This document shows, one piece after another, positions 12,201 to 60,026 of a stretch of 64,000 bases of DNA. The notes below the pieces were generated by a model. That model was not told the DNA's origin and searched no databases. It saw nothing but the letters and a program-made list of their open reading frames with translations. Numbering within the stretch: position 1 is the first letter of the stretch; each line of letters opens with the position of its first letter. The stretch is from Bacilli bacterium (GTDB lineage: Bacteria; Bacillota; Bacilli; Alicyclobacillales; SLC66). Where the stretch lies: the NCBI GenBank assembly GCA_013044175.1, contig JABEUY010000055.1, positions 30,228 through 94,227 of the forward strand, written 5' to 3'. The position numbers were made by a program, and so were the translations under genes.

Positions 12201-12245
12201 AATTTGTCCCACGCACCCTTCTCATTGGAGAGAGGGGTGTTTTTA
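12201..12245 (+). promoter_or_regulatory. ICE intercistronic box-hairpin module, copy 1
   Basis: Box AATTTGTCCCAC; stem CACCCTTCTC/GAGAGGGGTG; TTTTT; ATG 12246. Confidence 0.7.
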
Positions 12246-13943
12246 ATGCCAGTGAATTGTAGGGTATGTCACCGCGTATTGCGTAACCCGGTGTCGATCA
12301 CGCTTGGGGTCGGTCCGGTGTGCGTGAAAAAAGTTCGAGCACAAGCGGCTACACTAATGGCACAGATGCAAGCCGAGCGTCCAAGTGGCACGACTTACGA
12401 GCAGATGTACGGATTGTCTGAACAAGAACTTACACTCTATGCCGAACGCGGCGCAAGGACTGCGTACACCGAACGCGCACGTCACGGCAGGTCGTCCAGA
12501 CCGAGCGCAACCGCAGTCGAGATACCAACCGATCCGACTCGCAGAGGCTCGCAACCGATAGTTGTCGAGTGGATTGACGAAGACACAGCCACCGTTATCT
12601 CATCCGGTAGAGGCTACAACCACATAGCCAGTGCTAATACCTGCAACTGTCGCGAGTTTCGAAGTGCGGTGAGGCATCCAGAGCAATTCCTGCATGGTTG
12701 CCGCCACATGCAAGCGTACCGCCAAGCCTTAGCCATTGTTCAAAACCGCCCAGTTCCTGCACCACAACCAATGGAACCGTTTAACGAGTCCAGACCTGCG
12801 GTTCAGAACAATACGCAAGCAGTCGCTGTCCCAAATTTTACGGCGATTGATGTCACGGATGACATTGCCAGAACACAGATTCTGTCGGTCTGGAAAACGA
12901 ATCGATCATGGGACGGTATTCGAATGACAGAGGATCAAGCCGCCTACGATTCACTGATGTCATCGGCAGAGGCAGAATGGGAATATGTTACAGATGGTTC
13001 GATTTTGGGTGGTACAGGAAATACGTTTGGCGTGGAAATTGAAATGGAGTTTGAGTCTAGTGGTGCTTGGGATCGCGTGGCGAGGGATCTGTACAACGAA
13101 GGGCTGTCACAGTACAGCGAACGCGTGGGCTATCACACCGCTGGCGGTATGTGGATGCCTACACGTGATGGATCGCTGACAAATGGTGGGTTGGAAATTG
13201 TCTCACCAATCTTGCAAGACCGCCCGGAAGATTGGGAGCAGCTACGCAGAGTACTGGAAATCGCGAAGTATCACGGCGCAGTGGTCAACGGCAATACAGG
13301 CTGTCACACAAATATTGGTAGCGGTCCGGTCGATAGTCGAGCTTTCAGTTGGCAGAGATTGGCGAGAGCAGCACTGGGACACGAGGCGGCTTTGTATCGT
13401 ATGGGCGGCGCAGACAGTGAAAAATATCGCAGCGCGGGCACGGCAGGTGTACATCGTGGCACAGGTTACGTGCGCACGCTAGGCGATATCACATTTGGTG
13501 GGAATGCCACAATGGCTGAAATAAAATATCAGATCACAAAAGAGGATCACGCGACTTTGCTGAACGTGATGCACGATGGGCGAGTTGAATTTCGATCACC
13601 AAACGGGACGCTAGATGCGAGGCAGATTCAGGCAAATGTGGTAGTTGCCAACGCCATGATGCACCAAGCTGCAACCATCACAAACAGCAGTCCACTAGAC
13701 AACACGACACCGAAACTGTCAGATTACGCGAATCAGGTCGGCTATACGGCGGTACAAACTGCACGGCTAAAAGATGACTTACAGTGGGCTGCTCGTCACG
13801 GTCAGGATACCAGCACTTTGGAGCAGAATATTGCCAACCGCGAAGCCAAAGCCGAACTAGGATTCAGGCGTTTCTTGGATTTCTTGGGCAACCCGGTGGA
13901 CCGCAAGGCGGCTGCATGGCTTTACAAACGCGGATCAATCTAG
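12246..13943 (+). CDS. DUF6011-like Cys motif + SWIM zinc finger + Amidoligase_2-like (glutamine-synthetase-fold) domain fusion protein
   Basis: N-terminal CRVCHRVLRNPVSITLGVGPVC. SWIM motif CNCREF..GCRHMQAY. Amidoligase-like motifs GVEIEMEF, RDGSLTNGGLEIVSP and GCHTNIG. Confidence 0.6.
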   Translation: MPVNCRVCHRVLRNPVSITLGVGPVCVKKVRAQAATLMAQMQAERPSGTTYEQMYGLSEQELTLYAERGARTAYTERARHGRSSRPSATAVEIPTDPTRRGSQPIVVEWIDEDTATVISSGRGYNHIASANTCNCREFRSAVRHPEQFLHGCRHMQAYRQALAIVQNRPVPAPQPMEPFNESRPAVQNNTQAVAVPNFTAIDVTDDIARTQILSVWKTNRSWDGIRMTEDQAAYDSLMSSAEAEWEYVTDGSILGGTGNTFGVEIEMEFESSGAWDRVARDLYNEGLSQYSERVGYHTAGGMWMPTRDGSLTNGGLEIVSPILQDRPEDWEQLRRVLEIAKYHGAVVNGNTGCHTNIGSGPVDSRAFSWQRLARAALGHEAALYRMGGADSEKYRSAGTAGVHRGTGYVRTLGDITFGGNATMAEIKYQITKEDHATLLNVMHDGRVEFRSPNGTLDARQIQANVVVANAMMHQAATITNSSPLDNTTPKLSDYANQVGYTAVQTARLKDDLQWAARHGQDTSTLEQNIANREAKAELGFRRFLDFLGNPVDRKAAAWLYKRGSI

Positions 13944-13945
13944 TG

Positions 13946-13974
13946 TTGACAGTAATTGAATGAAGTGTTATAGT
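13946..13974 (+). promoter_or_regulatory. sigma-A type promoter
   Basis: TTGACA, 17 nt spacer, TATAGT. The spacer contains AATTGAATGAAGTG. Confidence 0.6.
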
Positions 13975-14012
13975 ATCAGTATTACAACATTTTAAAAATG
14001 GAGGTTGCAGTT

Positions 14013-14708
14013 ATGACAAAGAAGCATGAAACTCAAGAAAACAGGTATCGAGCAGTGGACACGGTTTCAGGCAAACTGCCAAGCATGGATTTCTATTTGG
14101 TGCAGCAGAACGGCGTAACCTTAGAAGCTTGCGATCCGCTGACTTTGTACGTTCAAGCCACCAAGGAGCAAGTGGACGATATGACCTTTAGTGACGTGCT
14201 CACGGTCGGCTTAGAGCAAATGTGGCGCGAGTCGCAACGCTTAGCTATGCTGGGTACGTATTCCAAGGTTTACAGTGCCATTGGGCTGCTCTATGACCCT
14301 GACAGCAGACATTGCACTTGGGAAAACCATGATGATGCGTTGATTTTGGACGCGTTTTCGCCATTCACGGTCTTGCAAAGTTTCATAAAATCTGAAAAAT
14401 ATCGCATCTTCGAAAAGGTTCCGCACCTCACACAACCGAAAGAAAATCTGGTTTTGGGCTGTCAGGGCTGTAAATATCACGAACCAGCAACGAGCACCTG
14501 TTCCCAGTTCCTTGCCAACAACACCAAGAAGAATCCGTGCCTTGGCTGTCAGTTCCGCGTTCCAGATGATGTGACTTACGATGATTATGTCGAGGTCACA
14601 GAAGCGAACATGACCGATCCGAGCGGTTATAAAGAATGGCTTCCATTTGACGAAAGATTGCAGGAATACGAGAACGCCCGCAGAAACTGGACGGATAGCA
14701 AACAATAA
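14013..14708 (+). CDS. Cys-rich hypothetical protein (zinc-ribbon-like)
   Basis: A GGAGG RBS favours ATG 14013. Motif GCQGCKYH..NPCLGCQF. Confidence 0.5.
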   Translation: MTKKHETQENRYRAVDTVSGKLPSMDFYLVQQNGVTLEACDPLTLYVQATKEQVDDMTFSDVLTVGLEQMWRESQRLAMLGTYSKVYSAIGLLYDPDSRHCTWENHDDALILDAFSPFTVLQSFIKSEKYRIFEKVPHLTQPKENLVLGCQGCKYHEPATSTCSQFLANNTKKNPCLGCQFRVPDDVTYDDYVEVTEANMTDPSGYKEWLPFDERLQEYENARRNWTDSKQ

Positions 14709-14771
14709 AAAATTGTCCTACGCGCCCCGCAAGCTGTGTAGGCATTAAAAATTCGAAGGGTTGTGGATTAA
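14709..14771 (+). promoter_or_regulatory. ICE intercistronic box module, copy 2 (degenerate hairpin)
   Basis: AAAATTGTCCTAC directly after the TAA stop. A CCTAC/GTAGG stem uses the box itself. ATG 14772. Confidence 0.5.
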
Positions 14772-15044
14772 ATGAATAAGGAAGAGTTAGTACGCGCAAT
14801 TGCCATTAAGGCTGGAGTCAAGCAAACCGCAGTCGTTCCAGTGCTGGACGCAACGCTTGAGGTCATCATTGAAGCAATCAAATCTGGCGACGAAGTAGGC
14901 TTGGTCGGATTTGGTACATTCGGAACCGTGGCGAAGGTCGCGCGTAAAGGTCGAAACCCGCAGACTGGCGAGGAAATTGACATCCCCGCGCACAAAATGA
15001 TCAAGTTTAAGCCGGGTAAAAATTTGAAGGGTGCAGTCAAGTAG
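14772..15044 (+). CDS. hup: HU family DNA-binding protein
   Basis: 90 aa: MNKEELV..GFGTF..RKGRNPQTGEEI.IPA...KFKPGK. Confidence 0.9.
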   Translation: MNKEELVRAIAIKAGVKQTAVVPVLDATLEVIIEAIKSGDEVGLVGFGTFGTVAKVARKGRNPQTGEEIDIPAHKMIKFKPGKNLKGAVK

Positions 15045-15986: not shown

Positions 15987-16790
15987 ATGGATCAGTTGGC
16001 ACTTGTTGAGTCCCAATCTGTACGCAATGAATACATCGGCAGGGTCAGTGTGCTAGATAAGGTCAAGGCACTGGTGCTCTTACCGGATGATCTTCATGCC
16101 ACGGTGGAAATGGTTTCGGAGTTTTATGGGGTTGGGGTTGAGGCAATCGTATGGCATATACGTAACAATCGCGAGGAATTAGAGCAGGATGGCTTGACGG
16201 TTCTGACTGGGGATCGACTCTCTGAGTTCAAAGCAGAGACTGGATTTTCCAGTAGAGCAGGAAGTCTTACAGTCATTCCTCGTCGAGCAATTTTGAGGAT
16301 TGGCATGCTTTTGCGGGACAGTGAAGTGGCAAAACAAGTTCGTACCTATTTGCTGGATGCAGAGCAAGGCAGCAATAAAGTGGATTTAGCAAAAGTGCTA
16401 CGCCTAGTTGAGCAAACAGCCAAAATCAATCGACAGCTTGGACAGTCGAAACCAACTGCATACGCATCTGCGATAAAGTTCGTGCAGGGAAAAACTGGTT
16501 ATGACCTATCTGATTTTGCAGCACCACAAGTGACAATAGAGACACAAAATCTGGTGGCTCACGCACTGGCACATCGAGCGATTTATCTTGACCCGCAAGG
16601 TTCAGTCCCTAAAACAGAGCTTTTTCAGTTTTTGGCGGGTTACGCAGAAATGCACAACTTGCAAAAGTTGTCAGCGGTAATCTTGAAGAGACAGCTTGTA
16701 CAAGTCGTGCCGCATTTACGTGCAAAGCGGCAACGTGATGGTATGAAGAGGTCATATGCTTGGGTAGGCTTGTCACTTGCAGCACAGTAA
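15987..16790 (+). CDS. putative DNA-binding / antirepressor-like protein (paralog of 30530..31402)
   Basis: N-terminal about 130 aa is clearly homologous to 30530..31402 (VKAL..LPD.L..TVEM, IPRRA.LRIGMLLRDSE.AK.VR.YLL). Family not confidently identified. Confidence 0.5.
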   Translation: MDQLALVESQSVRNEYIGRVSVLDKVKALVLLPDDLHATVEMVSEFYGVGVEAIVWHIRNNREELEQDGLTVLTGDRLSEFKAETGFSSRAGSLTVIPRRAILRIGMLLRDSEVAKQVRTYLLDAEQGSNKVDLAKVLRLVEQTAKINRQLGQSKPTAYASAIKFVQGKTGYDLSDFAAPQVTIETQNLVAHALAHRAIYLDPQGSVPKTELFQFLAGYAEMHNLQKLSAVILKRQLVQVVPHLRAKRQRDGMKRSYAWVGLSLAAQ

Positions 16791-16833
16791 TTTGTCCCAC
16801 ACGCCCCACCAAAATTAGAGAGGATGATAAATC
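16789..16833 (+). promoter_or_regulatory. ICE intercistronic box module, copy 3 (weak hairpin)
   Basis: AATTTGTCCCAC overlaps the TAA stop; GAGAGGA SD; ATG 16834. Confidence 0.5.
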
Positions 16834-17472
16834 ATGAAAAAATCAATCATGGCACTTAGCACTATTGCAATGTTGGCAAGCATGGCAGCCCCTGCATTTG
16901 CAGCACAGACAGTCGTTCACGAGGATGGCTTTACGCTGACGAAATCCAGCATTGTCGAAACCAACAAGACCGCGTACACCGCATATACCTTCGCAGCCAA
17001 AGACCCCAATTCTGGCGTAATGACAACGTTTGTACCGATTTATCCCTTGATGCAAGTGCTCAAAGCTGCGAATGTCAGAAATACATGGAATGGTACGACT
17101 TGGCATTTGTTGACAAACTTTAGCGGTCCGATCAACATCCACGGCAAGCACGGTAAGGACGAAATTACTATCGAAAAAGGTATGTACTATCGTACTGGCG
17201 TTATCGAAAGTGGCGTACCGAGTTTTGTGTTGAGAGACCCCAGCACAGGCGTAAAGACTACGTTTTTCGGGCTGTATTATGCCGAACAGGTTTTCGTTGA
17301 GCATGGCATGCCAGCGAGTTGGAATGGCAAAACGCATACGTTTCGAGTAGTAATGCCCGGTAAAGGTTTCCTCGTGATTCCGGGTGGGGATATGCAAAAA
17401 GTGAAGCCGGGGACAGAAGTCTCACATCCAATCACAAGTCAGGTTTTCCAAAAGCCTAACTATTCTCTCTAA
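16834..17472 (+). CDS. secreted protein with two copper-amine-oxidase-N-terminal-like repeats
   Basis: Signal peptide ..APAFA/AQ. Internal repeats DPNSGVMTTFVPIY..WNGTTW and DPSTGVKTTFFGLY..WNGKTH. Confidence 0.5.
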   Translation: MKKSIMALSTIAMLASMAAPAFAAQTVVHEDGFTLTKSSIVETNKTAYTAYTFAAKDPNSGVMTTFVPIYPLMQVLKAANVRNTWNGTTWHLLTNFSGPINIHGKHGKDEITIEKGMYYRTGVIESGVPSFVLRDPSTGVKTTFFGLYYAEQVFVEHGMPASWNGKTHTFRVVMPGKGFLVIPGGDMQKVKPGTEVSHPITSQVFQKPNYSL

Positions 17473-17548
17473 AAGCAATCAGTCAATCATTCAGTCTTAC
17501 CCTTCCAAAAGAAGGGTTTTTATTTGTGTGGAGAGAGGGGTAAAACTC

Positions 17549-24425: not shown

Positions 24426-24881
24426 ATGGAAGATAAACAGGCACTGAAAAATGCCTTACAGAAATACCATGAGGTTTGTGTACAAAAATCAGAAATAGAG
24501 GATCAGCTTTTTAAACTGCTGGGACGAGAAAAGTCGCCTGACCGCGTAGGGACACCTGACTCTTGCACACAACAGTTGCAAAAGGTAGCCAACAAACTCA
24601 AAATGTTGCCAAATTGCTCGCATTTTGCTGACGCGCTGAATATCGCACTTAATCAACTCTATTCGATGGATCAAGATCCACGCCCGGATGGGTTTGATGC
24701 GGATTTGCAGCTACTTGCCCTTTACCAGAATATATTACCTCTTTTACAGCAACCCAAAACAGAAATAGTAAAAGCAGCTTTACAGTTTCTGTATACACAA
24801 CATCAAATTTTTAGTGATCAGATTGATTATTTATATCTGCAAACTCTGCTCGATGCTATTGGGACCATTGCCAATCACTAA
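24426..24881 (+). CDS. hypothetical protein (paralog of 60633..61124)
   Basis: Shared MExKQAL start and a shared ILPLL..P.T segment with the minus-strand ORF next to region B. Confidence 0.5.
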   Translation: MEDKQALKNALQKYHEVCVQKSEIEDQLFKLLGREKSPDRVGTPDSCTQQLQKVANKLKMLPNCSHFADALNIALNQLYSMDQDPRPDGFDADLQLLALYQNILPLLQQPKTEIVKAALQFLYTQHQIFSDQIDYLYLQTLLDAIGTIANH

Positions 24882-24924
24882 ATAGTCCCACCTGCCCTTC
24901 ACTGATGGAAGGGCAGATGATCAC
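24880..24924 (+). promoter_or_regulatory. ICE intercistronic box-hairpin module, copy 4
   Basis: Box AAATAGTCCCAC; stem CTGCCCTTC/GAAGGGCAG (compensated arms); ATG 24925. Confidence 0.65.
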
Positions 24925-25425
24925 ATGAAGAAGTCACGATTTATCAAGGAACAGAAAGGTGCACTGGGCGGGTTTGTCCCAGACCTGATCGCCGGGATCA
25001 TCGCTGCATACGGACTGGACCTGCTGTTGGGCATCTTTTCAATGTTGCTCAAATCATTCATAGCAACTGTCACAATTGTAAATCTCGCCCATGCGTACAG
25101 CACCACGCTCAACGGCATCGATCCTGCAACGAACGTAGGTTACGCCACCGAGGCAGCCCAAGCATTTGGAAATACGCTACCAGTCGCGAATGCAGGAAGT
25201 GACGTGGTTTCAGTACCACCGACTCTTGGGCAAGAGACTTCGCCCGGCGATCTAGCACTATATCTTGGCGGCGACCCGGGCAACGCAGGCTATGATCAAT
25301 TAACCGTGGATTATGCCTTGGAGCTGCCCATCTCGATTCCCACATGGACTGGCGGCACATGGACATCCGTACAGCCACAGCCGATGCAGTTGTATTACAC
25401 ACTTACATTTTATCAGATCTGGTAA
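24925..25425 (+). CDS. membrane-anchored hypothetical protein
   Basis: 166 aa with an N-terminal hydrophobic segment after a basic leader. Confidence 0.45.
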   Translation: MKKSRFIKEQKGALGGFVPDLIAGIIAAYGLDLLLGIFSMLLKSFIATVTIVNLAHAYSTTLNGIDPATNVGYATEAAQAFGNTLPVANAGSDVVSVPPTLGQETSPGDLALYLGGDPGNAGYDQLTVDYALELPISIPTWTGGTWTSVQPQPMQLYYTLTFYQIW

Positions 25426-25426: not shown

Positions 25427-25483
25427 GATTTTTGTCCTACCTGCCCCACAAGATGTGAGGCACAATACAAGGAGGTCAGACGC
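25427..25483 (+). promoter_or_regulatory. ICE intercistronic box-hairpin module, copy 5
   Basis: Box GATTTTTGTCCTAC; imperfect stem GCCCCACA/TGTGAGGC; GGAGG; ATG 25484. Confidence 0.55.
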
Positions 25484-25723
25484 ATGACGAATTACACAAT
25501 ATCCGTGGAGGACATAGAAGATCCAGAGAATTACAGCGTAATAGAAACAAAGTATCCAACTCACGAATCCCGCGCAAGAGAGTTGGCGAAGCAACTCGCT
25601 GAAAAGTATAAGGATTCAAACTATCGCCTGACCGTGGAATTTTTTAGGGAATCTGATGGCTACACTGGTTACATCAATCCTGACGAAACCGACGATGGGG
25701 AGTACGCAGAAAACTGGCTTTAA
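25484..25723 (+). CDS. small hypothetical protein, tandem paralog 1
   Basis: MTNYTISVEDIE.., homologous to 25751..25984. Confidence 0.55.
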   Translation: MTNYTISVEDIEDPENYSVIETKYPTHESRARELAKQLAEKYKDSNYRLTVEFFRESDGYTGYINPDETDDGEYAENWL

Positions 25724-25990: not shown

Positions 25991-26039
25991 AATTTGTCCT
26001 ACAGCCCCCTTCTCCAATAGAGAAAAGGGGGCTATTTTT
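25991..26039 (+). promoter_or_regulatory. ICE intercistronic box-hairpin module, copy 6
   Basis: Box AATTTGTCCTAC; stem AGCCCCCTTCTC/AGAAAAGGGGGCT; TTTTT; ATG 26040. Confidence 0.7.
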
Positions 26040-29929: not shown

Positions 29930-30484
29930 ATGGCTGGTCAAAGGGTTGGATATATCAGGGTTAGTACAGACGAGCAAAATCGAGAAAGGCAGCTTGATGG
30001 TGTGTCACTGGATAAGGTTTTCAGCGAGGCAAAATCTGGTAAGAATACAGATCGTCCGCAGCTTCAAGCCATGTTGCAATACGTCCGCGAAGGGGACACG
30101 GTGACCGTGCATAGCATCGACCGCCTAGCGAGGAATCTGGATGACCTACGCAAGTTGGTGTTTGATCTGACAGGGCGTGGTGTGAGGGTTGAATTTTTGA
30201 AAGAGAATCTGGTTTTTGACACAACCGACTCACCTTGGAAAACGATGTTTCTAACGATGACAGGCATGTTTGCCGAGTTCGAGAGGGCGATAAATCGTGA
30301 ACGTCAACGTGAAGGTATCGAGCTTGCGAAAAAGCGTGGCGCATACAAGGGTCGCAAACGTGTTTTGACCAAGCCACAGGTTCTAACGATAAGGCAAAGA
30401 TTGGCAAATGGCGAGTCGGTCACAGCATTGGCGCAGGAATTAAGAGTCAGCAGAATGACGATTTACAACTACCTGAACGCCTAA
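29930..30484 (+). CDS. serine recombinase (resolvase/invertase family)
   Basis: VGYIRVSTDEQNRERQ catalytic-Ser motif and a C-terminal HTH (SVTALAQELRVSRMTIYNY). 184 aa. Confidence 0.9.
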   Translation: MAGQRVGYIRVSTDEQNRERQLDGVSLDKVFSEAKSGKNTDRPQLQAMLQYVREGDTVTVHSIDRLARNLDDLRKLVFDLTGRGVRVEFLKENLVFDTTDSPWKTMFLTMTGMFAEFERAINRERQREGIELAKKRGAYKGRKRVLTKPQVLTIRQRLANGESVTALAQELRVSRMTIYNYLNA

Positions 30485-30529
30485 ATTTGTCCTACCCGAC
30501 CCCTTTCTAACATAGAGAGGGGTGTTTTT
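30483..30529 (+). promoter_or_regulatory. ICE intercistronic box-hairpin module, copy 7
   Basis: Box AAATTTGTCCTAC overlaps the stop codon; stem ACCCCTTTCT/AGAGAGGGGT; TTTTT; ATG 30530. Confidence 0.7.
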
Positions 30530-31402
30530 ATGCTCAACTTGGTGAACAAGGAACAAGAATTGTTCGAGGATCGTACCATGCGTGATCGGTTGGCGACACA
30601 GGTAGATGTGTTGGAACGCGTGAAAGCCTTAGCCACATTACCTGATGGGTTGAATGTAACGGTTGAAATGGCTGCAAATTATTACGAGGTTGGTAAACAG
30701 GCAATCGTCAGCCTGATTTATGATAACCGCTTGGAGCTTGAAGAGGATAAGTTGAGACTTCTAACAGGTGATGAACTGAATTCCTTTAAGGAAGTGGGTG
30801 TGATTCCCAAAAACACAGCGTCACTCACACTCATTCCCCGCCGTGCTCTCCTACGAATCGGCATGCTCTTACGTGACAGCGAGATTGCCAAAACCGTGCG
30901 TAACTACTTGCTGAACGTTGAAGAAACCGCGAGAGCCGAAGCCCCGCAGGTGATTCAAAAAGCGTTGACGAAAACGAGTCACCGCATGGCTTGGGGTGCT
31001 GTTCGCAATGCCATCAAGCAGAAAACACAGATTGGTATCATGATTGGGCTGACTCCTGCAATGGCTTCACTTATCGCTATGGAGGATACGGAAAAAGAGT
31101 TTGGCACAGACTTGTCCTCATTCAAGCGTCAAATCCGTGAAGAGGGTACGGACACCACCTACACACCCACCGATATTGGCAAGCGACTGGACCCGCCCTT
31201 GTCTGCGGTAAAGGTCAACGCGCTCTTGGAAACGTTGGGCTTTCAGGTGCGGACCGTCGAGAAGGAATGGACGCTGACGGAAAAAGGACAGCCTTACGCA
31301 CGACTCATGCCTGTACAGATCAATCATGCAACACGCGGCGTGGAAACCACCAAATATATGATACGGTGGAAGGAAAGCATCATAAGTCTGTTACGAGCCT
31401 AA
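30530..31402 (+). CDS. putative DNA-binding / antirepressor-like protein (paralog of 15987..16790)
   Basis: See 15987..16790. The N-terminal domain is conserved and the C-terminal half is divergent. Confidence 0.5.
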   Translation: MLNLVNKEQELFEDRTMRDRLATQVDVLERVKALATLPDGLNVTVEMAANYYEVGKQAIVSLIYDNRLELEEDKLRLLTGDELNSFKEVGVIPKNTASLTLIPRRALLRIGMLLRDSEIAKTVRNYLLNVEETARAEAPQVIQKALTKTSHRMAWGAVRNAIKQKTQIGIMIGLTPAMASLIAMEDTEKEFGTDLSSFKRQIREEGTDTTYTPTDIGKRLDPPLSAVKVNALLETLGFQVRTVEKEWTLTEKGQPYARLMPVQINHATRGVETTKYMIRWKESIISLLRA

Positions 31403-31448
31403 ATTGTCCTACCAGCCCCTTCTCTTTCATAAGAGAGGGGGCATTTTA
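31401..31448 (+). promoter_or_regulatory. ICE intercistronic box-hairpin module, copy 8
   Basis: Box AAATTGTCCTAC overlaps the stop codon; stem GCCCCTTCTCT/GAGAGGGGGC; ATG 31449. Confidence 0.7.
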
Positions 31449-39911: not shown

Positions 39912-39954
39912 AATTGTCCCATTCACCCCTTCTCAATCGAGAGGGGGTTTTTTC
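39910..39954 (+). promoter_or_regulatory. ICE intercistronic box-hairpin module, copy 13
   Basis: Box AAAATTGTCCCAT; stem ACCCCTTCTC/GAGAGGGGGT; TTTTTT; TTG 39955. Confidence 0.7.
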
Positions 39955-43637: not shown

Positions 43638-43681
43638 AAAATTGTCATACCACCCCTTCTCAATCGAGAGGGGGTTCTTTC
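43638..43681 (+). promoter_or_regulatory. ICE intercistronic box-hairpin module, copy 14
   Basis: Box AAAATTGTCATAC; the stem is identical to copy 13 (ACCCCTTCTC/GAGAGGGGGT); GTG 43682. Confidence 0.65.
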
Positions 43682-43984
43682 GTGGCAAAGATCGCGTTTC
43701 TGTGTGTGGATGAAAGCATGGCGACATGGATCATAAATGAGTCAAAATCCTTTACCTTTACCGCGCAAATCGGTAATGACAAGTCAGCCGATGCTTATAT
43801 TGCGATGGCTATGCACGATGAAGATATTGACAAATACCTGCCTATCGTACAAGACCAGATGTTTGCATGGTTCGGCGTATCTAACGATGTCGTAAAAGCT
43901 CTTAAGCCGTTCGAGTTTGCGACTTGGGATGAAATATCAGATGGCGATGCAGTTTTACAGTGCGCCGAACGCATGAGTCAGTAG
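43682..43984 (+). CDS. hypothetical protein
   Basis: 100 aa. Start inferred from module spacing. Confidence 0.45.
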   Translation: MAKIAFLCVDESMATWIINESKSFTFTAQIGNDKSADAYIAMAMHDEDIDKYLPIVQDQMFAWFGVSNDVVKALKPFEFATWDEISDGDAVLQCAERMSQ

Positions 43985-45954: not shown

Positions 45955-46708
45955 ACGAAAAATCTTGAAGGATCGTCCGGGCGTTGTCTGGTTGCTGGGA
46001 CTCGCGGCTATCGGTCTTGCCACGGCGTATGTGGCAATATCCTCCATTCATGGAGCCGAAAAAATGGTGGTGGTACTTACGGCTGCCAGTACGATACCTG
46101 CGGATACCGTGATCACCAGTGCCGAGGTCACGAGCACGAGCATTTCCGCGTCCGTGGTCCCGCCAAACGCAGTGCAAAACTCACAAGCCATTGTCGGCAA
46201 ATATGCAGATGCCACCATTGCACAGGGAGAGCCGATCTTACAATCAGTTGTTGCACCCGCCACCACCGTTCGCCAGTTGGTGCGCACGTATGGAATGAAT
46301 TTTGTAGGCGCAACGGTGCAACTTGATCCCGCCGACTTGCCGATTACAGATGTGAATCCGGGCGATTTGGTGGATTTGATTGGCGTATATGGCACTCAAA
46401 ACCAGCAGGTCTATACACAGTGGATTGCGCAAGGTGTTCCGGTTCTTGCTATCGACACCACCAATACCAAGATCGTACTTGCCATTCCGCAAGCCGATGC
46501 ACTAGCGTTGGTCAGGGATTTAACGACAGGCAAGGTGCGCGTCATGCTAGACCCGCAGCCGTTTAACGCTGCGAACATGTTTAGGACACAGACGAGTACG
46601 AGCAATGCGTTGCCGAGTGTTAAGGCGGTAAAGGCGGTCAAGGCAGTAAAAACGGTCAAATCTGTGCAGAGTGTTAAGGTGGTCAAGGCAGTCAAGACTA
46701 AAAAATAG
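45947..46708 (+). CDS. cpaB: CpaB/RcpC-like Flp pilus assembly protein (SAF domain)
   Basis: GTG 45947 lies 8 nt after an AAAGGAGG RBS. N-terminal TM, then a SAF-like segment (IPADTVITSAEV..GKYADATIAQGEPIL). C-terminal (VKA)n repeat. Confidence 0.65.
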   Translation: MAKRKILKDRPGVVWLLGLAAIGLATAYVAISSIHGAEKMVVVLTAASTIPADTVITSAEVTSTSISASVVPPNAVQNSQAIVGKYADATIAQGEPILQSVVAPATTVRQLVRTYGMNFVGATVQLDPADLPITDVNPGDLVDLIGVYGTQNQQVYTQWIAQGVPVLAIDTTNTKIVLAIPQADALALVRDLTTGKVRVMLDPQPFNAANMFRTQTSTSNALPSVKAVKAVKAVKTVKSVQSVKVVKAVKTKK

Positions 46709-46749
46709 TCCCCCAAGCCCTTCTCTAGTACACAGAGAGGGGCTTTTTT
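46702..46749 (+). promoter_or_regulatory. ICE intercistronic box-hairpin module, copy 15
   Basis: Box AAAATAGTCCCCC contains the TAG stop; stem AAGCCCTTCTCT/AGAGAGGGGCTT; TTTT; ATG 46750. Confidence 0.7.
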
Positions 46750-46917
46750 ATGTCTGATATTCCGTATTTCTTCAAATCGCCAGATGAGCCGCAGCTAAAG
46801 GCTATTTTGTCATTCTACGAGCAGGACAAGTTGCACGAGGTATTTACAGCCAGCCGCGACGAGTGCCGGGAATGGAGCGACGAGTTTCTAGCGGCGAGAC
46901 AGGAACAGGAGGAATGA
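46750..46917 (+). CDS. small hypothetical protein (55 aa)
   Basis: Starts at the module-defined ATG. Its TGA overlaps the next ATG (ATGA). Below the ORF-track length cutoff. Confidence 0.45.
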   Translation: MSDIPYFFKSPDEPQLKAILSFYEQDKLHEVFTASRDECREWSDEFLAARQEQEE

Positions 46918-55059: not shown

Positions 55060-55060
55060 T

Positions 55061-55106
55061 CAATTTGTCCCCCACGTCCCTTCTCTAAATGAGAGGGGGT
55101 TTTTTC
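55061..55106 (+). promoter_or_regulatory. ICE intercistronic box-hairpin module, copy 16
   Basis: Box CAATTTGTCCCCCAC; stem CCCTTCTC/GAGAGGGGG; TTTTTT; ATG 55107. Confidence 0.7.
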
Positions 55107-57710
55107 ATGTCCGAAAAATGGGAATTTGGGAAGATCAAGACCATTCCAGACTGGATGCAGCGGTTGAAAGATCGACCTAGCAAGTCGAATACCGCAGACA
55201 CAAACGTTTCATGGGTACGCATCATTCCGTTTGCTGGACAAAAGCATGATGCCGACAAGTTGCCATCAAAACTTGGTGGCTTGGGTGGCGAGGTCCATTG
55301 GCGATTCTGCAAAGATGGTGCGGGCAAGATCAGTGTGTATGCAGGGTATCAGTCTGCCGATGCGCTGCGTAGGGCACTAGAACAACGTTTAACCGATGCC
55401 GACCTTCAAGCCACCAATGAGCCGCCGACCTACGAAGAGAAATTCGTCAACCGGGTTGGTGAGCTTGGCGGCGTTTTGAATGATAAGGCAAAACTAGAAT
55501 CGATTCTGGACGCGCTCGAAAATGACACGTATTTGGACATCGTTTTCGAACAACGCCCGGACCACGAATTCAAAAACGCACTCAAAAATCGCGGCGGTAC
55601 TGCAAAAAGCGACAAGTCTCACATGAGTGACGCGGCAGACGCTTGGAAGGAACTGTTATTTATGGACGGTAAGACCAAGCCTAAGACAGCCGCCAAGGGG
55701 CAAGCACCTGCGGAGTCAAACCCTGTCGATAAGGATCGAGCCAAGCAGATCAATGACCTGCTGGCTGAAAGCACCAACTATTTCCGTGTGTCGATCAAGC
55801 TTGGGGCAGCGCACTCCAAGCACATTCAGACGATTTTTACCGAACTTAACAGTCAATTTAAGCATCGTCACCGCCTTAGTCTGTCCGACGAGGCAAAGAG
55901 CACACTTTGGAAAAAAGGTAGCGCGGAAGGGCTGTGGCGTGAAGCAGAGTTGGCGGTTTTGGTCGCGCTGCCTGACATGACCCACACGCAGATGGCGCGA
56001 TCCGTCACGCACATGAAGCCGGGCGAACAGACATTGAATGACGATCAGTTGACAGATGGCATTGCCGTTGGTCGATTGATCCATCCAGTCAAGTCGCCGC
56101 GACTCGTCAAGATACCAACCAAACAATTTTTGCGCCATTTTTTCATGGGTGGCAAAAACGGTTCCGGGAAGTCCAGTACCGCAGTGCAAATGATTCAATC
56201 CTTGTTGGACGAATGGGGTGAGAATCCTGATTTAGCACCGGGCTTTACGTACATTGACCCGGCAGGATCGACACTCACTATTGTCCTCAATCGGTTGTTA
56301 AAGCTGGAACAGCAGGGTGTCCGTATTCCATGGGAAAAGGTGCATTACATCGACATGACACCCACATCACAGTACCCGGTGGGCTTGAATCTGCTTTACC
56401 ATGAACAAGGCGAGGGTGTGTCTGCCGTGGCATCCGGTGCGCTAGACGTGATCAAATCAGCCTTTGGCGGGGATGCCATTTTTACTGAACGCCTAATGGA
56501 AAACGGCATGATGACCCTGCTGTACGACACACATCCGCACACGATCTTAGGCTTGACCAGTATTTTACAGTACCCTGCCATGCGTGAGCACATTGACATC
56601 TTGGACCCGCTGGTGCAAGAGTTTTGGGAGACAACTGGGAATGACCTGAAACCGAAAGACCTCGATCCGCTGCTGAATCGGTTGCGCCCGTTACTGATGA
56701 ATCCTGCAATGCGCCGCATTTTTGGGCAGCAGGACTGGACACTAGACATCCTCAAATGGATGGACGAAGGACACATCGTTTTGGTCAACGTGTTAAACCT
56801 CGAACCAAAAAACATGGGGCTGGTTGGTGGTCAATTCTTGATGCGATATCACGCCACCGCCAAAACGCGTGAACCGGACATTTCCAAGCCTCACATCCTG
56901 ATGATTGACGAGGCACATAATGTCCGGGTTCCAATTCTCGAAAAGGTGATTGCCGAAGATCGCAAGTTTGGGTTGAGCCTTGGACTGATCACGCAATTCC
57001 CGGAACAGTTTGATGGATTGCTGCTAAAGTCGATATCGGAGAATATGGGCACATTTTTGACTTGCACGGTAGGTCCGAGTTCCGCATCCGTCATGTCCAA
57101 AATGATGAATGGCGCATTTGCAGGTGGCATACTTCAAGGTTTGCCGACGAGCCGTGTAGCGGTTTACACGAGCATCGATGGAGAGCCGCTGTCATTCACC
57201 GTCAAGTCTGACCCGCCTGTGATTTATCGTCCTACTGGTGAGCTTGCCCGGTACGAAGATGCAGCCGCGATGCGGGACGCGCAGGGCTGGGCAAAGGCAA
57301 AAGCGGAGGCATTGTCTAGTCGTGATGGCAAGAGCAGCGAGGCTGTGGACCAAGAGATCGCTGCATATTTCGAGTGGTTGAAGCAGTTTAAGGATGTAGA
57401 CGAAGATGAGGACAAGCCAAACGGTAAGCCCTCGAAAGAGGTCAAGGTCTACAAGCCAACCGCCGATGAGCAAGTGGTTTTGGAAGGGCTATGCGCTCTC
57501 GTTGGTGATCGCGGTGGTTGGGAAGGGCGAACCAGTGAGTTGTTGACAGCGTTAGAGGACGTGCTGGACGCGGCGGTTTTGGAGGATTGGACAGCTAAAG
57601 TTCTAGGCGTGTTGTTGTCCAAAGCCGTGACATACCTCGCGGTGCATGGAATACAGGCAAACAGTGTGCGCAAAGAGAAGGGTACATTCTGGTCTTTCCA
57701 AAGTTCGTAA
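55107..57710 (+). CDS. T4SS coupling-protein-like P-loop ATPase (VirD4/TraD/TraG-like) without N-terminal TM
   Basis: Walker A is GGKNGSGKSST and Walker B is ILMIDEAHN, plus GLSLGLITQFPEQF. The C-terminal 87 aa is shared with the next gene. Confidence 0.6.
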   Translation: MSEKWEFGKIKTIPDWMQRLKDRPSKSNTADTNVSWVRIIPFAGQKHDADKLPSKLGGLGGEVHWRFCKDGAGKISVYAGYQSADALRRALEQRLTDADLQATNEPPTYEEKFVNRVGELGGVLNDKAKLESILDALENDTYLDIVFEQRPDHEFKNALKNRGGTAKSDKSHMSDAADAWKELLFMDGKTKPKTAAKGQAPAESNPVDKDRAKQINDLLAESTNYFRVSIKLGAAHSKHIQTIFTELNSQFKHRHRLSLSDEAKSTLWKKGSAEGLWREAELAVLVALPDMTHTQMARSVTHMKPGEQTLNDDQLTDGIAVGRLIHPVKSPRLVKIPTKQFLRHFFMGGKNGSGKSSTAVQMIQSLLDEWGENPDLAPGFTYIDPAGSTLTIVLNRLLKLEQQGVRIPWEKVHYIDMTPTSQYPVGLNLLYHEQGEGVSAVASGALDVIKSAFGGDAIFTERLMENGMMTLLYDTHPHTILGLTSILQYPAMREHIDILDPLVQEFWETTGNDLKPKDLDPLLNRLRPLLMNPAMRRIFGQQDWTLDILKWMDEGHIVLVNVLNLEPKNMGLVGGQFLMRYHATAKTREPDISKPHILMIDEAHNVRVPILEKVIAEDRKFGLSLGLITQFPEQFDGLLLKSISENMGTFLTCTVGPSSASVMSKMMNGAFAGGILQGLPTSRVAVYTSIDGEPLSFTVKSDPPVIYRPTGELARYEDAAAMRDAQGWAKAKAEALSSRDGKSSEAVDQEIAAYFEWLKQFKDVDEDEDKPNGKPSKEVKVYKPTADEQVVLEGLCALVGDRGGWEGRTSELLTALEDVLDAAVLEDWTAKVLGVLLSKAVTYLAVHGIQANSVRKEKGTFWSFQSS

Positions 57711-57754
57711 ATTGTCCCACAACCCCTTCTCTTAATGAGAGGGGGCTGTTTTAT
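57709..57754 (+). promoter_or_regulatory. ICE intercistronic box-hairpin module, copy 17
   Basis: Box AAATTGTCCCAC overlaps the stop codon; stem CCCCTTCTC/GAGAGGGGG; TTG 57755 (or ATG 57764). Confidence 0.7.
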
Positions 57755-58561
57755 TTGCTCGAAATGAAACAGCAGTTGTGGAGTTGCCTACGTCAAAAAT
57801 GGGTAAGTGGGACGCTAGAGGAATGGGTACGACAGGATTATGTTCTGGTATTGGTCAATGAGTACGGCTATGCGTTAGAACAGATGGCAGAAGAGTTTGT
57901 CGTGAACGGTGCAGGTGCTGGACAGGCAAGGGCTGATCTGATCGTTTGGTCATCCGTAGAGGATAAACAGCAGGGCAACAGACCACTGTTTATCATTGAG
58001 TGTAAAGGCACTGATGATGAGATTGAGCCTTCTACATTTCAGCAAGGTATGCGTTATGCACGGTTCGTCAATGCCCCTTACTTTGTAGCTAGAAACCTGT
58101 TTGAGACACGGTTTTTTGAGATCGACCACAGCAAAATGTATCCAGAGTACGAGGAAATCGGAAGACTGGAAAACACGGCGAATCCCGACTACTCTAATTA
58201 TTTCGCGATGCACAAAGCATTAAGTCGCGTAGCTTACACAGAAAATCCACCGATACCTGCTGGGTTTAGTTGTGATAGACCCAGAATGAGCGATAAGATT
58301 TATCGACCGACTAAAAATGAACTCGTTATGCTTGAAGCAGTCTGTACTCTAGTAGAGAGCCAAGCAGGTTGGGAAGGGCGCACGAGCGCGTTGTTGACCG
58401 CATTAGAGGACGTGCTGGATGCGGAAGTGCTGGAAGATTGGACAGCCAAGAATTTAGGTGTGCTGCTGGCTAAAGTCGTGACATACCTTGCAACACGCGG
58501 TATTCAGGCGCAAAACACACGAGCAAGGATGGGCAATGTTTGGTCTTTCCGTCAAATTTAA
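57755..58561 (+). CDS. HsdR-N-terminal-like PD-(D/E)xK nuclease domain protein carrying the coupling-protein C-terminal module
   Basis: ARADLIVWSS..PLFIIECKGT..QQGMRYA pattern. The C-terminal 87 aa is 64 percent identical (56/87, hand count) to 57447..57707. Confidence 0.55.
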   Translation: MLEMKQQLWSCLRQKWVSGTLEEWVRQDYVLVLVNEYGYALEQMAEEFVVNGAGAGQARADLIVWSSVEDKQQGNRPLFIIECKGTDDEIEPSTFQQGMRYARFVNAPYFVARNLFETRFFEIDHSKMYPEYEEIGRLENTANPDYSNYFAMHKALSRVAYTENPPIPAGFSCDRPRMSDKIYRPTKNELVMLEAVCTLVESQAGWEGRTSALLTALEDVLDAEVLEDWTAKNLGVLLAKVVTYLATRGIQAQNTRARMGNVWSFRQI

Positions 58562-58776: not shown

Positions 58777-59160
58777 TACGAATCTGTACGAGTTTAGGAC
58801 AAAATGCCGAAGCCTCGCATCCATTCTAGGCTTGCGGACGATTTTTAAGGCAAAAAACTCGCATCTATGGTTCAGGGTATGTATGATTCTCGGCTACCCT
58901 GACCTAAGATGCGAGTTTTTTGATGTTGTATGTCGTGTCATGACTGAAAGAACAGAGGATTGTACGAAACTGAACGCATTGAGGACAAGGCGTTTTGGGG
59001 CTATTACGAAACTGTCCGCATTCAGGACACAAAAATGCTGTATGGCGTGTCACGGCTGAACGTTTGGGAATCTGTACGAGACTGAACGCGTTTAGGACAC
59101 GAAGATGCTGTACGCTGGGTCATGCCTGGAAGAGCGGAGGTCTGTACGAGCTTAGGAAAG
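58777..59160 (+). repeat. iteron-like array 1 (degenerate, about 5-6 units)
   Basis: Units of the form (G/T)TACGA(A/G)..(GAAC/GTCC)GC..TT.AGGACA. Two adjacent units are 42 bp apart (58961, 59003). Confidence 0.6.
58850..58921. terminator. long-stem hairpin family, copy d (operon-end punctuation)
   Basis: CAAAAAACTCGCATCT pairs with AGATGCGAGTTTTTTG (16 bp perfect), with a 40-nt loop containing an inner CAGGGTA/TACCCTG stem. Confidence 0.6.
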
Positions 59161-59221
59161 GTATAGGAACCTTAGCGGATAAGATGCTGGGATTATGAAG
59201 CTGCCCACATCTAGGCATAGA

Positions 59222-59267
59222 GGCAGAATAGCGGCAACCTGAATCACATGGTTGCCGCTATTCTGCC
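59222..59267. terminator. 18-bp perfect hairpin downstream of the minus-strand cassette
   Basis: GGCAGAATAGCGGCAACC, 10-nt loop, GGTTGCCGCTATTCTGCC. Lies 8 nt from the stop of 59275..59721. Confidence 0.6.
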
Positions 59268-59274
59268 GTTAAAG

Positions 59275-59721
59275 CTATTCTCGAACGCCTTGCCTAAGTG
59301 CTTGCATCCACGCAGGTGTATCCTGTTCTGCCTCCGGTTCCGGTTCCGGTTTGGCTGCTGCCTCCGGTGCTGCGGGCGGGATCATATCTGCTATGGATGC
59401 CTTGACAGCGGCTATGATCTTGGTTTCTACTGCGGTTAGTTTGTCCTCTATTGATCTATCAATTGTCAAGTCAAGAGTTTCTAAAATCGGATCCAACTCA
59501 TCGTGTATCAATCGTTTTACCTCATCTACACTCATGCCCTCGCTACCACGATTGCCCGCCTGTGCGTCATATTGTAGCTGTCTTAGCAGTAGCCCTCGCG
59601 CCCATTGTGAGGTCGAACCTGCTGGAATGGCGGCGATAAAATCCGTGTCCGTGTCATAGATTGGAATGTGGATCAAGCGAATACGTTTAGGTCGATCCGG
59701 TTTCTGCTTCGCGGTGCTCAT
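59275..59721 (-). CDS. hypothetical protein (Pro/Ala/Glu-rich C-terminus)
   Basis: 148 aa. Its start overlaps the stop of the upstream ASCH-like gene. Confidence 0.5.
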   Translation of the reverse strand: MSTAKQKPDRPKRIRLIHIPIYDTDTDFIAAIPAGSTSQWARGLLLRQLQYDAQAGNRGSEGMSVDEVKRLIHDELDPILETLDLTIDRSIEDKLTAVETKIIAAVKASIADMIPPAAPEAAAKPEPEPEAEQDTPAWMQALRQGVRE

Positions 59722-59981
59722 TAGTGTACGTCCTCCTCTAGTGGTGCGATTGACAAGGCTACATAGCCATCTGGTACATACGGTGCGCCTTGCAGGATGT
59801 GTGTTATCTCGCGGTAAACCTTGCGTCCGGTGTATGGCGATCTCTTGTGCGCATCGAATTCTTCCAAAACCAGCACATCACCGACTCGATACGGTTTGTC
59901 TGCGATTCGAATTTCGACTCGTTTACGGTCCTGTAAGACAGCCTCGAAATATTCTGTGGATAGTTTTAGTTTGCGAATCAT
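59721..59981 (-). CDS. ASCH/DUF3850-like domain protein
   Basis: MIRKLKLSTEYFEAVLQDRKRVEIRIADKPYRVGDVLVLEEF. Start set by GAAGGAGG and the minus-strand box module. Confidence 0.55.
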   Translation of the reverse strand: MIRKLKLSTEYFEAVLQDRKRVEIRIADKPYRVGDVLVLEEFDAHKRSPYTGRKVYREITHILQGAPYVPDGYVALSIAPLEEDVH

Positions 59982-60026
59982 GGGTGTGCCTCCTTCTATA
60001 TTCTGTGGGGGCTGTAGGACAATTTT
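59982..60026 (-). promoter_or_regulatory. ICE intercistronic box module, copy 18 (minus strand)
   Basis: The reverse complement reads AAAATTGTCCTACAGCCCCCACAGAATATAGAAGGAGGCACACCC followed by ATG. Confidence 0.55.

Follow-up and report, generated by a model that had tools for sequence, protein, structure and literature searches.

How are genes expressed that lie beyond a long series of hairpins, each resembling a transcription terminator and covering the ribosome-binding site of the next gene? This question is raised by an integrative conjugative element of ~54 kb in a Bacilli bacterium (GCA_013044175.1, contig JABEUY010000055.1, positions 30,228 to 94,227; this whole stretch of 64,000 nucleotides is hereafter referred to as the window). 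About one third of the gene boundaries of the element, and likewise of its relatives, bear a unit of ~45 nt, hereafter the module, composed of a 12-nt box (AAWTTGTCCYAC), at whose upstream edge conservation stops, and a hairpin. Taken together, our results make it likely that the hairpin acts as an RNA stop and as a mask of the Shine-Dalgarno (SD) sequence, and that the box is the licence site for the next gene.

Exact matches to TTGTCCYAC number 12 in the window (11 on the + strand and one on the - strand) against 0.95 expected, and none of 100 shuffles reached 12. When one mismatch or a CC insertion was allowed, 18 modules were obtained, 17 of them on the gene strand and all within the element (Table 1). 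The original prediction for this DNA had announced at least 18 copies of a ~45-nt module, and its positions agree with ours to 1-4 nt. It had also stated that the host flank and the low-GC island are free of copies, and our scans indeed detected none there (host flank, 1-7.7 kb) and none in the right flank; the sole covariance-model match in ~10 kb of host flank was weak (E = 0.047) and boxless. The module had not been recognised as a described RNA, and a search of the whole window against Rfam at the gathering threshold returned tRNAs only, with chance-level matches (E ≥ 0.07) in a permissive search of 30-44 kb. The claim of a uniform box, hairpin and T-run architecture applies to most modules, but not to 16792, 36412 and 60022 (-), where a perfect box has no real hairpin, nor to 14713, with a weak hairpin, nor to 24883 and 25432, whose hairpins lack a T-run. 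Of two degenerate relatives proposed earlier, the site at 24351 has a hairpin but a poor box, and that at 9258-9269 (-) is merely the first gene's G-rich SD (ATG 9269) read as its reverse complement. Two further ideas about the box were rejected, namely an antisense or small RNA of the element directed against it (on the + strand, complements are limited to the minus-strand module itself and the SD of the first gene) and avoidance of its 6-mer core within coding sequence, where the core is not depleted.

We further compared the window with ~10 distinct related elements of the Tad/Tcp type, which show VirB4 identities of 43-84% and have their gene order in common (individual sequences are designated below by L numbers). 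Their sources are Bacilli that favour heat and acid, namely uncultured Bacilli or Alicyclobacillus-like sequences, the latter comprising pAACI02 and two metagenome contigs of 60% G+C. Plasmid pAACI02 of Alicyclobacillus acidocaldarius (DSM 446) was found among annotated plasmids through its VirB4-like protein (46% identity), and the others through VirB4 scans of genomes and metagenomes (five loci), a profile search and contig look-ups; since the genome and metagenome scans gave only five loci, the element family appears to be rare. In viral contigs, a pattern scan gave at least 120 single scattered matches, which is the chance level, and a protein scan gave none. All relatives carry the module architecture, each with its own box (Table 1) around the family core TCCYRC. 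At orthologous junctions the module is retained with differing arms, for instance before the gene starting GTGGCAAAGATCGC (window 43682), where the box variant and hairpin of module 14 are retained in L001, L002, L003 and L006, and the layout of module 9 recurs at the orthologous junction in L003, L134 and L137. Integron attC-like cassettes were rejected, as the modules stand between conserved core genes at orthologous junctions. L003 and L004, on contigs of the metagenome-assembled genome JA4.bin15, are distinct elements with VirB4 proteins 82% identical and a common box (TTTCCCAC); a reader that is shared or belongs to the host would account for this better than would immunity-type specificities that exclude one another, with the caveat that the binning of the two contigs into one genome may be wrong.

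The hairpin was then considered as RNA. In 13 modules of the window, a strong hairpin (-14 to -23 kcal/mol) begins 0-3 nt past the box and is followed by a T-run and the start codon. The module hairpins were the best terminator-like sites in a scan of 24-44 kb, a region in which a generic scan reported almost no sigma-70-type promoter on the gene strand. Among 64 modules, 51 fold at ≤-9 kcal/mol, with stems of 8-15 bp and loops of 3-8 nt; the gap between box and stem is 0-4 nt in all 51, and at least four T occur in the 7 nt after the stem in 46 (in the window, the exceptions are 24883 and 25432). These values bear out the earlier remark that hairpin and U-tract resemble an intrinsic terminator. 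For the comparison of arms, a covariance model was seeded with ten copies, nine of them from relatives, and its alignment was used, as a MAFFT alignment was out of structural register and RNAalifold failed on it. The model recovered 12 modules of the window (E ≤ 0.003), all on the + strand and inside the element, and 59 copies in the 251 kb of the window and relatives combined, all 59 on the gene strand and, in the relatives, all within homologous elements. Covariation of the arms, which had been proposed from a few copies, was formally confirmed on these 59: standard pairs occupy 95.8% of cells versus 80.5% with partners shuffled, in an alignment that was itself fitted to the model. Changes on both sides were found in 101 cells versus 37 after shuffling, none of 500 shuffles matched the observed pairing or double changes, and the covariation score dropped from 0.63 to ≤0.17 when the partner was slid by 1-3 columns. 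Per-sequence folds, an independent count, agree in that most stem positions alternate between C-G and U-A. In these folds 11.5% of the stem pairs are G·U, and on the opposite strand such pairs would be mismatched. Moreover, folds with a module's own arms average -15.9 kcal/mol, compared with -11.5 for chimeric arms. It is thus well supported that the hairpin is under selection as sense-strand RNA.

Rich in C and U, the 5' arm is similar to the 3' tail of 16S rRNA, and the 3' arm reads GAGAGGGGG or GGAGG, 5-9 nt before the start codon. Because this is a GGAGG-type sequence at the same distance as the ordinary GGAGG of module-less genes of these elements, we regard the 3' arm as the SD. The earlier statement that it is the sole SD of the downstream gene holds for ~12 of the 18 modules in the window; at 25432, 14713 and 33197 the SD is separate, lies further downstream and is not sequestered. 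The prediction that, in transcripts derived from upstream, the hairpin forms a terminator look-alike that would also mask the next ribosome-binding site is well supported.

The box, in turn, belongs to the downstream gene and not to the hairpin, as several lines of evidence indicate. First, the boxes without hairpin are conserved as well as the others and keep a distance of 31-33 nt to the start codon (32-33 nt at 16792, 36412 and 60022 (-) of the window). At the junction that follows the YdjM-like gene, the box is located inside the upstream open reading frame (ORF), whose stop codon occupies the would-be loop position; the window, L137 and L133 all have such a hairpin-less box within an ORF, in the variant proper to each element. 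Second, distances from the box are fixed: counted from its end, a C-run lies at +5 to +7, purines are almost absent as far as +12, 49 of 64 copies have their purine run starting at +16 (11 copies) or +17 (38 copies), the loop centre falls at +14.6 (standard deviation 1.3), and the start codon lies 30-34 nt from the box in 45 of 64. Longer stems pair with shorter loops, so that the total length of the module is constant. Third, boxes also head transcription units, at 60022 (-) and at 1842 in L136, the latter after a divergent spacer of 570 nt, and a simple scan of these found no sigma-70-type promoter. Finally, four boxes of pAACI02 begin inside the T-run of an ordinary strong terminator; next come a weaker hairpin, which sequesters the SD or start codon, and the gene. 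We infer that the box is a sequence-specific licence site of the downstream gene.

How the downstream genes are reached is a separate matter. The early operon ends at module 1, and everything downstream therefore needs a way past ~14 strong hairpins. We tentatively favour transcription restart inside the hairpin, a mechanism put together from the arrangement of boxes, hairpins and candidate factors and perhaps correct, though short of probable. By default, each hairpin boundary would stop transcription through its GC-rich stem and U-tract, and any read-through RNA would have a masked SD. The box would be read on DNA by an element-encoded specificity factor, for which the proteins with a sigma-region-4-type helix-turn-helix (HTH) are candidates, and which would be made from the early operon, driven by a host promoter, together with a sliding-clamp homologue. 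RNA polymerase would then start anew inside the module, between box and SD, at a predicted +12 to +16 past the box in the A/T-rich loop. Restart transcripts would lack the 5' arm, and would neither terminate nor mask their own SD. What speaks for restart over other mechanisms is that the box is kept where there is no hairpin, at unit heads and, in a relative, directly after ordinary terminators; the SD mask would also gain a purpose, because only restart transcripts would be translated. Late transcription in phage T4 relies on a minimal sigma and a sliding clamp; a clamp homologue beside a sigma-like protein in the early operon of this element is a lead, not a test.

Two proteins of the element are candidate readers of the box (Table 1). 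The first is encoded in the early operon (9256-11650), which consists of genes for a DnaN-like clamp (ATG 9269), the sigma-region-4-like protein and a truncated M50/site-2-protease-like protein, and two small ORFs. The M50-like gene directly follows the sigma-like gene of 279 amino acids (aa), a pairing conserved in pAACI02; L136 also has an M50-like gene, preceded by a gene without detectable similarity to the sigma-like protein of the window. A search of 5.8 billion proteins detected no relatives of this sigma-region-4-like protein beyond itself, and single-sequence AlphaFold gave an unusable model (predicted local distance difference test, pLDDT, 38). The gene of the second candidate (67 aa) lies immediately upstream of an iteron array with ATGTCC(T) repeats that ends in module 18. 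This array (60066-60244) comprises 4.3 copies of a 42-bp unit, ATGTCCTAAATTCGTTCAAATTCGTAATCACCCCAAAAAGCC on the minus strand, with degenerate copies to ~60340; its ATGTCC submotifs are 42 bp apart, and TAGTCC/GGACTA palindromes occur just upstream. The location of ATGTCC(T) iterons between a sigma-region-4-like gene and the minus-strand box is a hint that TGTCC is a DNA-binding site. A different motif, TTCGTAA(C/T), recurs at 8985-9009, at 7748-7761 and within the iterons at 60.0-60.3 kb; it includes the palindrome ATTCGTTACGAAT, ~200 bp upstream of the early promoter, and is probably the operator of the element's main repressor, distinct from the box. Pfam and domain scans of the element's ORFs found no RNA-binding or N-like protein, and the small proteins of the early operon are all acidic, with no arginine-rich candidate among them. 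An element-encoded RNA polymerase was rejected: no RNA-polymerase domain was found, a protein of 873 aa is a HerA/FtsK-like ATPase, and a protein of 988 aa is homologous to a pAACI02 gene labelled 'pyrrolo-quinoline quinone' in RefSeq.

A number of points weigh against restart. From +4 to +12 past the box, the sequence consists almost wholly of C and T and is rich in G+C, which makes it poorly suited as a -10 or melting region for a holoenzyme of the sigma-70 type; with the box as -35 element and a 17-bp spacer, transcription would start after the SD, and no known promoter geometry fits. The window has only region-4-like domains and no region-2 protein (pAACI02 has a sigma of the extracytoplasmic function type), and neither a PDB sequence search nor Pfam found an RNA polymerase of the element. 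Furthermore, control of hairpin folding by a box-bound factor would account equally well for the spacing of 0-4 nt between box and hairpin, and the fixed distances could have been inherited if all copies descend from one ancestral cassette.

The original prediction had offered a conventional promoter reading, with TTGTCC as -35 element and the -10 element in the loop, and this did not survive as written; the restart favoured above is a modified form of it. TTGTCC, TTTCCC, TTCACA and TTTCCA do share 3-5 of six positions with TTGACA. In place of TAnnnT, however, the sequence 16-18 bp downstream is T(G/A)AGAG or CGAAAG, with no conserved A2 and T6, and a generic promoter scan reported no module as a promoter. 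Standard geometry would put +1 at ~26-28 nt past the box end, 4-8 nt before the start codon and beyond the SD. The reading fails because the start falls after the SD, leaving a leader of 4-8 nt without one, whereas other genes use canonical SDs. Standard sigma-70 geometry does work for the long versions of the module (L001 39600, L136 1842 and window 25432). Two other promoter readings were rejected, a sigma-54-type -24/-12 element (the GG-N10-GC spacing does not occur, and there is no activator) and a -10 element formed by the stop codon and its A/T flank (TAAATT), which is not conserved in relatives, where T-runs take its place.

The alternative that best survives is antitermination with unmasking, in which the box is a loading or tether site before each hairpin of long terminator-punctuated operons. 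Acting as RNA, as in lambda nut, or as non-template DNA, as in RfaH ops, the box would recruit a factor that prevents the hairpin from forming and permits read-through, and that would open the SD if it stays on the RNA. Factor-dependent read-through had already been envisaged in the original prediction and is still a serious rival, although we rate it as rather unlikely. The variant in which a terminating ribosome melts the 5' arm does not suit the geometry: from the end of the stop codon to the first paired base the distance is 7-18 nt (median ~13), which is mostly too long, and such melting is unlikely. A ribosome positioned at the stop codon would cover the box but, except at two or three junctions, not the stem. 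A box-bound factor finds favour in the constant adjacency of box and stem noted above, which is kept even where the SD is separate (25432, 33197, L003 2447, L134 5590 and L137 5805), and a box of 12 nt has the size of ops. Some override is required by ~14 serial strong terminators, and processive antitermination is established for conjugation operons of Gram-positive bacteria with >20 internal terminators (PMC8191782, PMC8955417). However, we found no ConAn1 (PF17362), NusG/KOW or arginine-rich small protein, the early small proteins being acidic. Boxes persist without a hairpin, one of them inside a translated ORF, and four boxes of pAACI02 come after, not before, terminators. In addition, antitermination has no need of fixed distances from the box to the SD and the start codon, and a factor acting on DNA or polymerase alone would leave the SD masked.

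Silencing in the manner of stoperators is distinctly improbable. Here the box would be the asymmetric DNA site of a monomeric repressor of the element (e.g., the sigma-region-4-type HTH protein), and the bound repressor would block the elongating polymerase in an orientation-dependent way, keeping the integrated element silent. The ~18 asymmetric copies in short intergenic spaces, often touching a stop codon and co-oriented with transcription, are as this reading expects, as are the differences in box between related elements and the box-like ATGTCC(T) array adjoining a sigma-region-4-like gene; the pair of sigma-like and metalloprotease-like genes also recalls the ImmR/ImmA pair of repressor and anti-repressor protease. 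Yet no box is present at the early promoter, where an operator copy would be looked for and the repeat nearby is TTCGTAA. A roadblock would be redundant beside a strong terminator, the fixed distance to SD and start codon is left unexplained, and induction would offer no way past the terminators.

We also considered that the box tethers ribosomes, a reading that we hold to be very unlikely. As a single strand ~16 nt upstream of the SD, the box would hold a 30S subunit or a just-terminated ribosome until the SD opens, possibly by pairing with 16S rRNA and with no need of an element factor. The rigid, hairpin-independent distances from the box to the SD and start codon agree with it, as does the upstream stop codon, 0-9 nt before the box at most junctions, and no element-encoded reader was found. 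When the 16S sequences of L139 and L141 (plasmid-borne, Planococcus and Priestia) and of Paenibacillus were compared, the 3' strand of helix 44 in Planococcus and Priestia was seen to contain GUGGGACA, exactly complementary to UGUCCCAC, although these sequences may not match the host's own; with one G·U, pairing reaches 11 nt for modules reading AAUUUGUCCCAC, and most box variants (C to U, A to G) would keep it by wobble. That the box pairs with this strand (GGUGGGACA, in Bacillaceae and Planococcaceae) and that the ribosome itself is the reader has a slimmer chance still, and the same slim chance attaches to its corollary, a bacterial counterpart of the tether of calicivirus termination upstream ribosome-binding sites (TURBS), with translation coupled across terminator hairpins. 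Against it, Paenibacillus 16S rRNA differs at the site (GGGGUA), the rRNA segment is helical and far from the mRNA channel, a match of 8-9 nt to rRNA has a chance probability of a few percent, and passage through the terminators is unexplained. The 'downstream box' pairing once proposed for adjacent 16S nucleotides was refuted experimentally. Lastly, RNA processing or stabilisation, also raised in the original prediction, is highly improbable and found no specific support: an endonuclease would cut in or beside the box, and the hairpin, then close to the new 5' end, would shield the RNA from 5' exonuclease and give each cistron its own half-life. Box variants specific to each element would suit a nuclease encoded by the element, and for such protection the box-stem gap of 0-4 nt is apt, as a protective 5' stem-loop in Bacillus must sit very near the RNA end, but the window and pAACI02 have no conserved nuclease candidate in common (the NERD-domain gene is present in L131 and L137 and absent from the compared 42-kb stretch of pAACI02), a stabiliser hairpin would leave the SD masked, boxes occur without hairpins, and the terminators are not dealt with.

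Table 1. Modules and other features of the window, followed by the box variants of related elements
Feature	Coordinates	Strand	Box position	Description
Tyrosine integrase	7760-8941	-		Pfam
Sigma-70-type promoter	9203..9231	+		Near-consensus TTGCAA-17-TATGAT, read from the sequence; precedes early operon
Candidate box reader 1, 279 aa	10383..11222	+		Only recognisable domain sigma-70 region 4 / GerE-type HTH, residues ~190-235
Module 1	12201..12248	+	12204	Box 12201-12212, hairpin 12213-12240 (-18.7 kcal/mol), T-run, ATG 12246; next gene amidoligase-like
Module 2	14710..14774	+	14713	Box 14713-14721, weak hairpin, separate SD, ATG 14772 (HU-like gene); 50 nt from box to start
Module 3	16789..16836	+	16792	Perfect box 16792-16800, no hairpin, SD GAGAGGA, ATG 16834; 33 nt from box to start
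Boxless hairpin	17499..17530	+		ACCCTTC/GAAGGGT, T-run, GTG 17528, before 988-aa gene
Module 4	24880..24927	+	24883	Box TAGTCCCAC 24883-24891, hairpin 24892-24916 (CTGCCCTTC/GAAGGGCAG), no T-run, ATG 24925
Module 5	25429..25486	+	25432	Box 25432-25440, hairpin 25442-25462, no T-run, separate SD AAGGAGG, ATG 25484
Module 6	25991..26042	+	25994	Box 25994-26002, hairpin 26003-26033, T-run, ATG 26040 (T2SSE-type ATPase with intein)
Module 7	30484..30532	+	30487	Box 30487-30495, hairpin 30499-30523, T-run, ATG 30530
Module 8	31401..31451	+	31404	Box 31404-31412, hairpin 31415-31442 (-22.7 kcal/mol), ATG 31449 (NERD-domain gene)
Module 9	33194..33263	+	33197	Box 33197-33205, terminator-like hairpin 33206-33233, T-run, separate SD, ATG 33261
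Module 10	35508..35555	+	35511	Box 35511-35519, hairpin 35520-35547 (ATCCTCCTTTCT/AGAAGGGAGGAT), T6, ATG 35553
Module 11	36409..36456	+	36412	Perfect box 36412-36420, no hairpin, SD AAAGGAGG, ATG 36454; box within 3' end of YdjM-like ORF (stop 36436-36438)
Module 12	37461..37508	+	37464	Box TAGTCCCAC 37464-37472, hairpin 37474-37499, T6, ATG 37506 (VirB4-like ATPase); TAG of box is the stop codon of TcpE-like gene
Module 13	39911..39957	+	39914	Box TTGTCCCAT 39914-39922, hairpin 39925-39948, T6, TTG 39955
Module 14	43639..43684	+	43642	Box TTGTCATAC 43642-43650, hairpin 43652-43675, GTG 43682
Module 15	46703..46752	+	46706	Box variant TAGTCCCCCAA 46706-46716, hairpin 46717-46743, T6, ATG 46750
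Module 16	55062..55109	+	55065	Box variant TTGTCCCCCAC 55065-55075, hairpin 55077-55099, T6, ATG 55107 (HerA/FtsK-like ATPase, probably the coupling protein)
Module 17	57709..57757	+	57712	Box 57712-57720, hairpin 57723-57745, T-run, TTG 57755
Module 18	59979..60025	-	60022	Box 60022-60014, no real hairpin, SD GAAGGAGG, ATG 59981 (ASCH/DUF3850 gene); sole minus-strand copy, heads two-gene unit, after 42-bp iteron array
Candidate box reader 2, 67 aa, basic	60364..60567	-		Stand-alone sigma-region-4-like HTH
Box of L002-L004 and L137				(A)ATTTCCCAC
Box of L134				TCCCACC
Box of L131				TCCACC
Box of L133 (two of its copies)				TGTCCTAC / TGTCCTGC
Box of pAACI02, L006 and L007				(T/C)GTCCTGC(AAC)
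Box of L136				TTTCACAC-N-CCTGA

The element adjoins a tRNA cluster that ends with tRNA-Pro (7603-7679 of the window), and the tRNA-Pro end and the right end were found to share no att direct repeat. Nearly all genes are on the + strand, from 9.2 to 59 kb. By Pfam and PDB sequence search, the integrase is followed by the early block and then by HU, a double-HTH protein and an SNF2 helicase. Tad-pilus genes comprise an intein-carrying T2SSE ATPase, T2SSF-like genes, a prepilin peptidase and TadZ-like and CpaB-like genes, and Tcp-type transfer genes encode TcpE, a VirB4/AAA_10 ATPase, an SLT hydrolase and a HerA/FtsK-like ATPase. A restriction-modification cassette forms a low-GC island (48283-51785, 35% G+C) that contains no module and has a BpuJI-like endonuclease between two C5 cytosine methylases. 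The modules also affect gene calling. The called ORF starts at 37488 (VirB4-like) and 55089 (HerA-like) are in-frame ATGs inside hairpin loops (CTAATGAG, TAAATGAG); because the first in-frame ATG is located there, the automatic calls are 18 nt too early, and the real starts are likely 37506 and 55107.

Further observations concern individual genes and repeats. The T2SSE/VirB11-type ATPase ORF at 25947-28541 (+) contains an intein (Hint and LAGLIDADG) as an insertion at ~26880-27914, and its pAACI02 homologue aligns in two blocks on either side of this ~1-kb insertion. Just upstream, two acidic ORFs of 79 aa (25484-25723, MTNYTISVEDIE...) and 77 aa (25751-25984, MTNFTISVTDIE...) are clear paralogues that represent a tandem duplication, with module 5 preceding the first copy only. 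The segment 21056-22384 (1.3 kb), a candidate origin of transfer (oriT) or replication origin, is without ORF and repeat-dense. At least 8 copies of ACGTCAGGG/CCCTGACGT occur in it, in either orientation, a G10/C8 hairpin spans 21062-21102, and the SNF2 start is covered by a perfect 13-bp inverted repeat (22378-22409). A 22-bp motif, GTA(G/T)ACTAGTCCGTCCTAG(T/C)AT, recurs at 78-bp spacing at 21192-21309 (+) and 62136-62325 (-), with two copies in this non-coding region and three near the right end, which could be integrase arm-type or origin-related sites.

If restart is true, the transfer genes would be expressed as ~18 mutually insulated mini-units, and one 45-nt sequence would be terminator, translational mask, promoter and ribosome-binding site at once. 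It would represent a new promoter class, driven by an element factor unlike a complete sigma, and could supply a compact, portable insulator-plus-restart part for the synthetic biology of Firmicutes. If antitermination is true instead, the element would be the first case in which every terminator has its own recognition box, as opposed to a single loading site for the operon. The module also provides a simple sequence signature for finding poorly annotated Tad/Tcp-type elements, corrects gene starts where in-frame ATGs in hairpin loops are called, and offers a tractable case of how mobile elements silence 50 kb of genes and then switch them on.

Several known systems resemble parts of this arrangement. 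Lambda nut (boxA with the boxB hairpin), RfaH ops and the Mu Com site at mom each place a short linear site, read by a specific factor, beside a hairpin; the nut and ops factors pass polymerase through terminators, and Com opens an SD-sequestering hairpin at mom. These sites occur once or twice per operon, and the nut hairpin, with its conserved loop, does not serve as the terminator. In the modules, loops are not conserved, and no N-like, NusG-like or Com-like protein was found in the element.

The start-associated sequences and extended start-associated sequences (SAS/ESAS) of Cluster K mycobacteriophages are likewise element-specific, present in 11-19 copies in one orientation at translation starts, contain the SD and are absent from the host genome, and half have an upstream inverted repeat with a variable spacer (PMC3203893). 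SAS conserves the SD region itself, with the inverted repeat upstream of it, whereas the module has its box 16 nt upstream of the SD and an inverted repeat that includes the SD, followed by a U-tract. Stoperators of Cluster A mycobacteriophages (L5 gp71 type) share an asymmetric motif of 12-13 bp in ~20-30 copies, short intergenic and often at stop codons, co-oriented, and varying in sequence between related elements (PMC9283540). They differ in having no adjacent hairpin or fixed distance to the next start (PMC9283540) and in that a copy also serves as operator at the early promoter, at which no box is found here; the fold of the stoperator repressor (HTH with stoperator domain) was not detected in this element.

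The conjugation operon of pLS20 is also a long co-directional Gram-positive array with many intrinsic terminators, whose proposed purpose is insulation from spurious transcription (PMC8191782, PMC8955417). In that system, conAn, made up of the protein ConAn1 and a large RNA (conAn2) encoded where the operon begins, loads once at the operon start and ignores terminator sequence, whereas here a box accompanies each terminator, whose stem also serves as the next gene's SD; PF17362 was detected in none of ~55 ORFs scanned, and Rfam gave no match.

The closest parallel to a restart comes from the late genes e, soc, I-TevI and segB of T4, in which a late promoter lies inside a hairpin that sequesters the ribosome-binding site, and late transcripts lack the sequestering arm (PMC2988022). 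In both cases, the hairpin masks the SD in upstream transcripts, an embedded element-specific promoter (as proposed here) would avoid the 5' arm, and the genome encodes its own sigma-like factor and sliding clamp. The module hairpin differs in its U-tract, which gives it the look of a terminator, so that the proposed promoter would be combined with the terminator of the unit before it, and in being repeated at ~18 boundaries and across a conjugative family; its box is unlike TATAAATA and lies upstream of a C-rich stretch, and no gp55-like or gp33-like protein was recognised. Thus, the individual pieces are all known, from intrinsic terminators, SD-sequestering hairpins and internal conjugation terminators to T4-type embedded promoters, stoperators and SAS/ESAS. 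New, as far as we could find in earlier descriptions, is their combination, in which a conserved box at fixed distance stands beside a terminator stem that serves as the next SD, at about one third of gene boundaries and throughout a family of elements.

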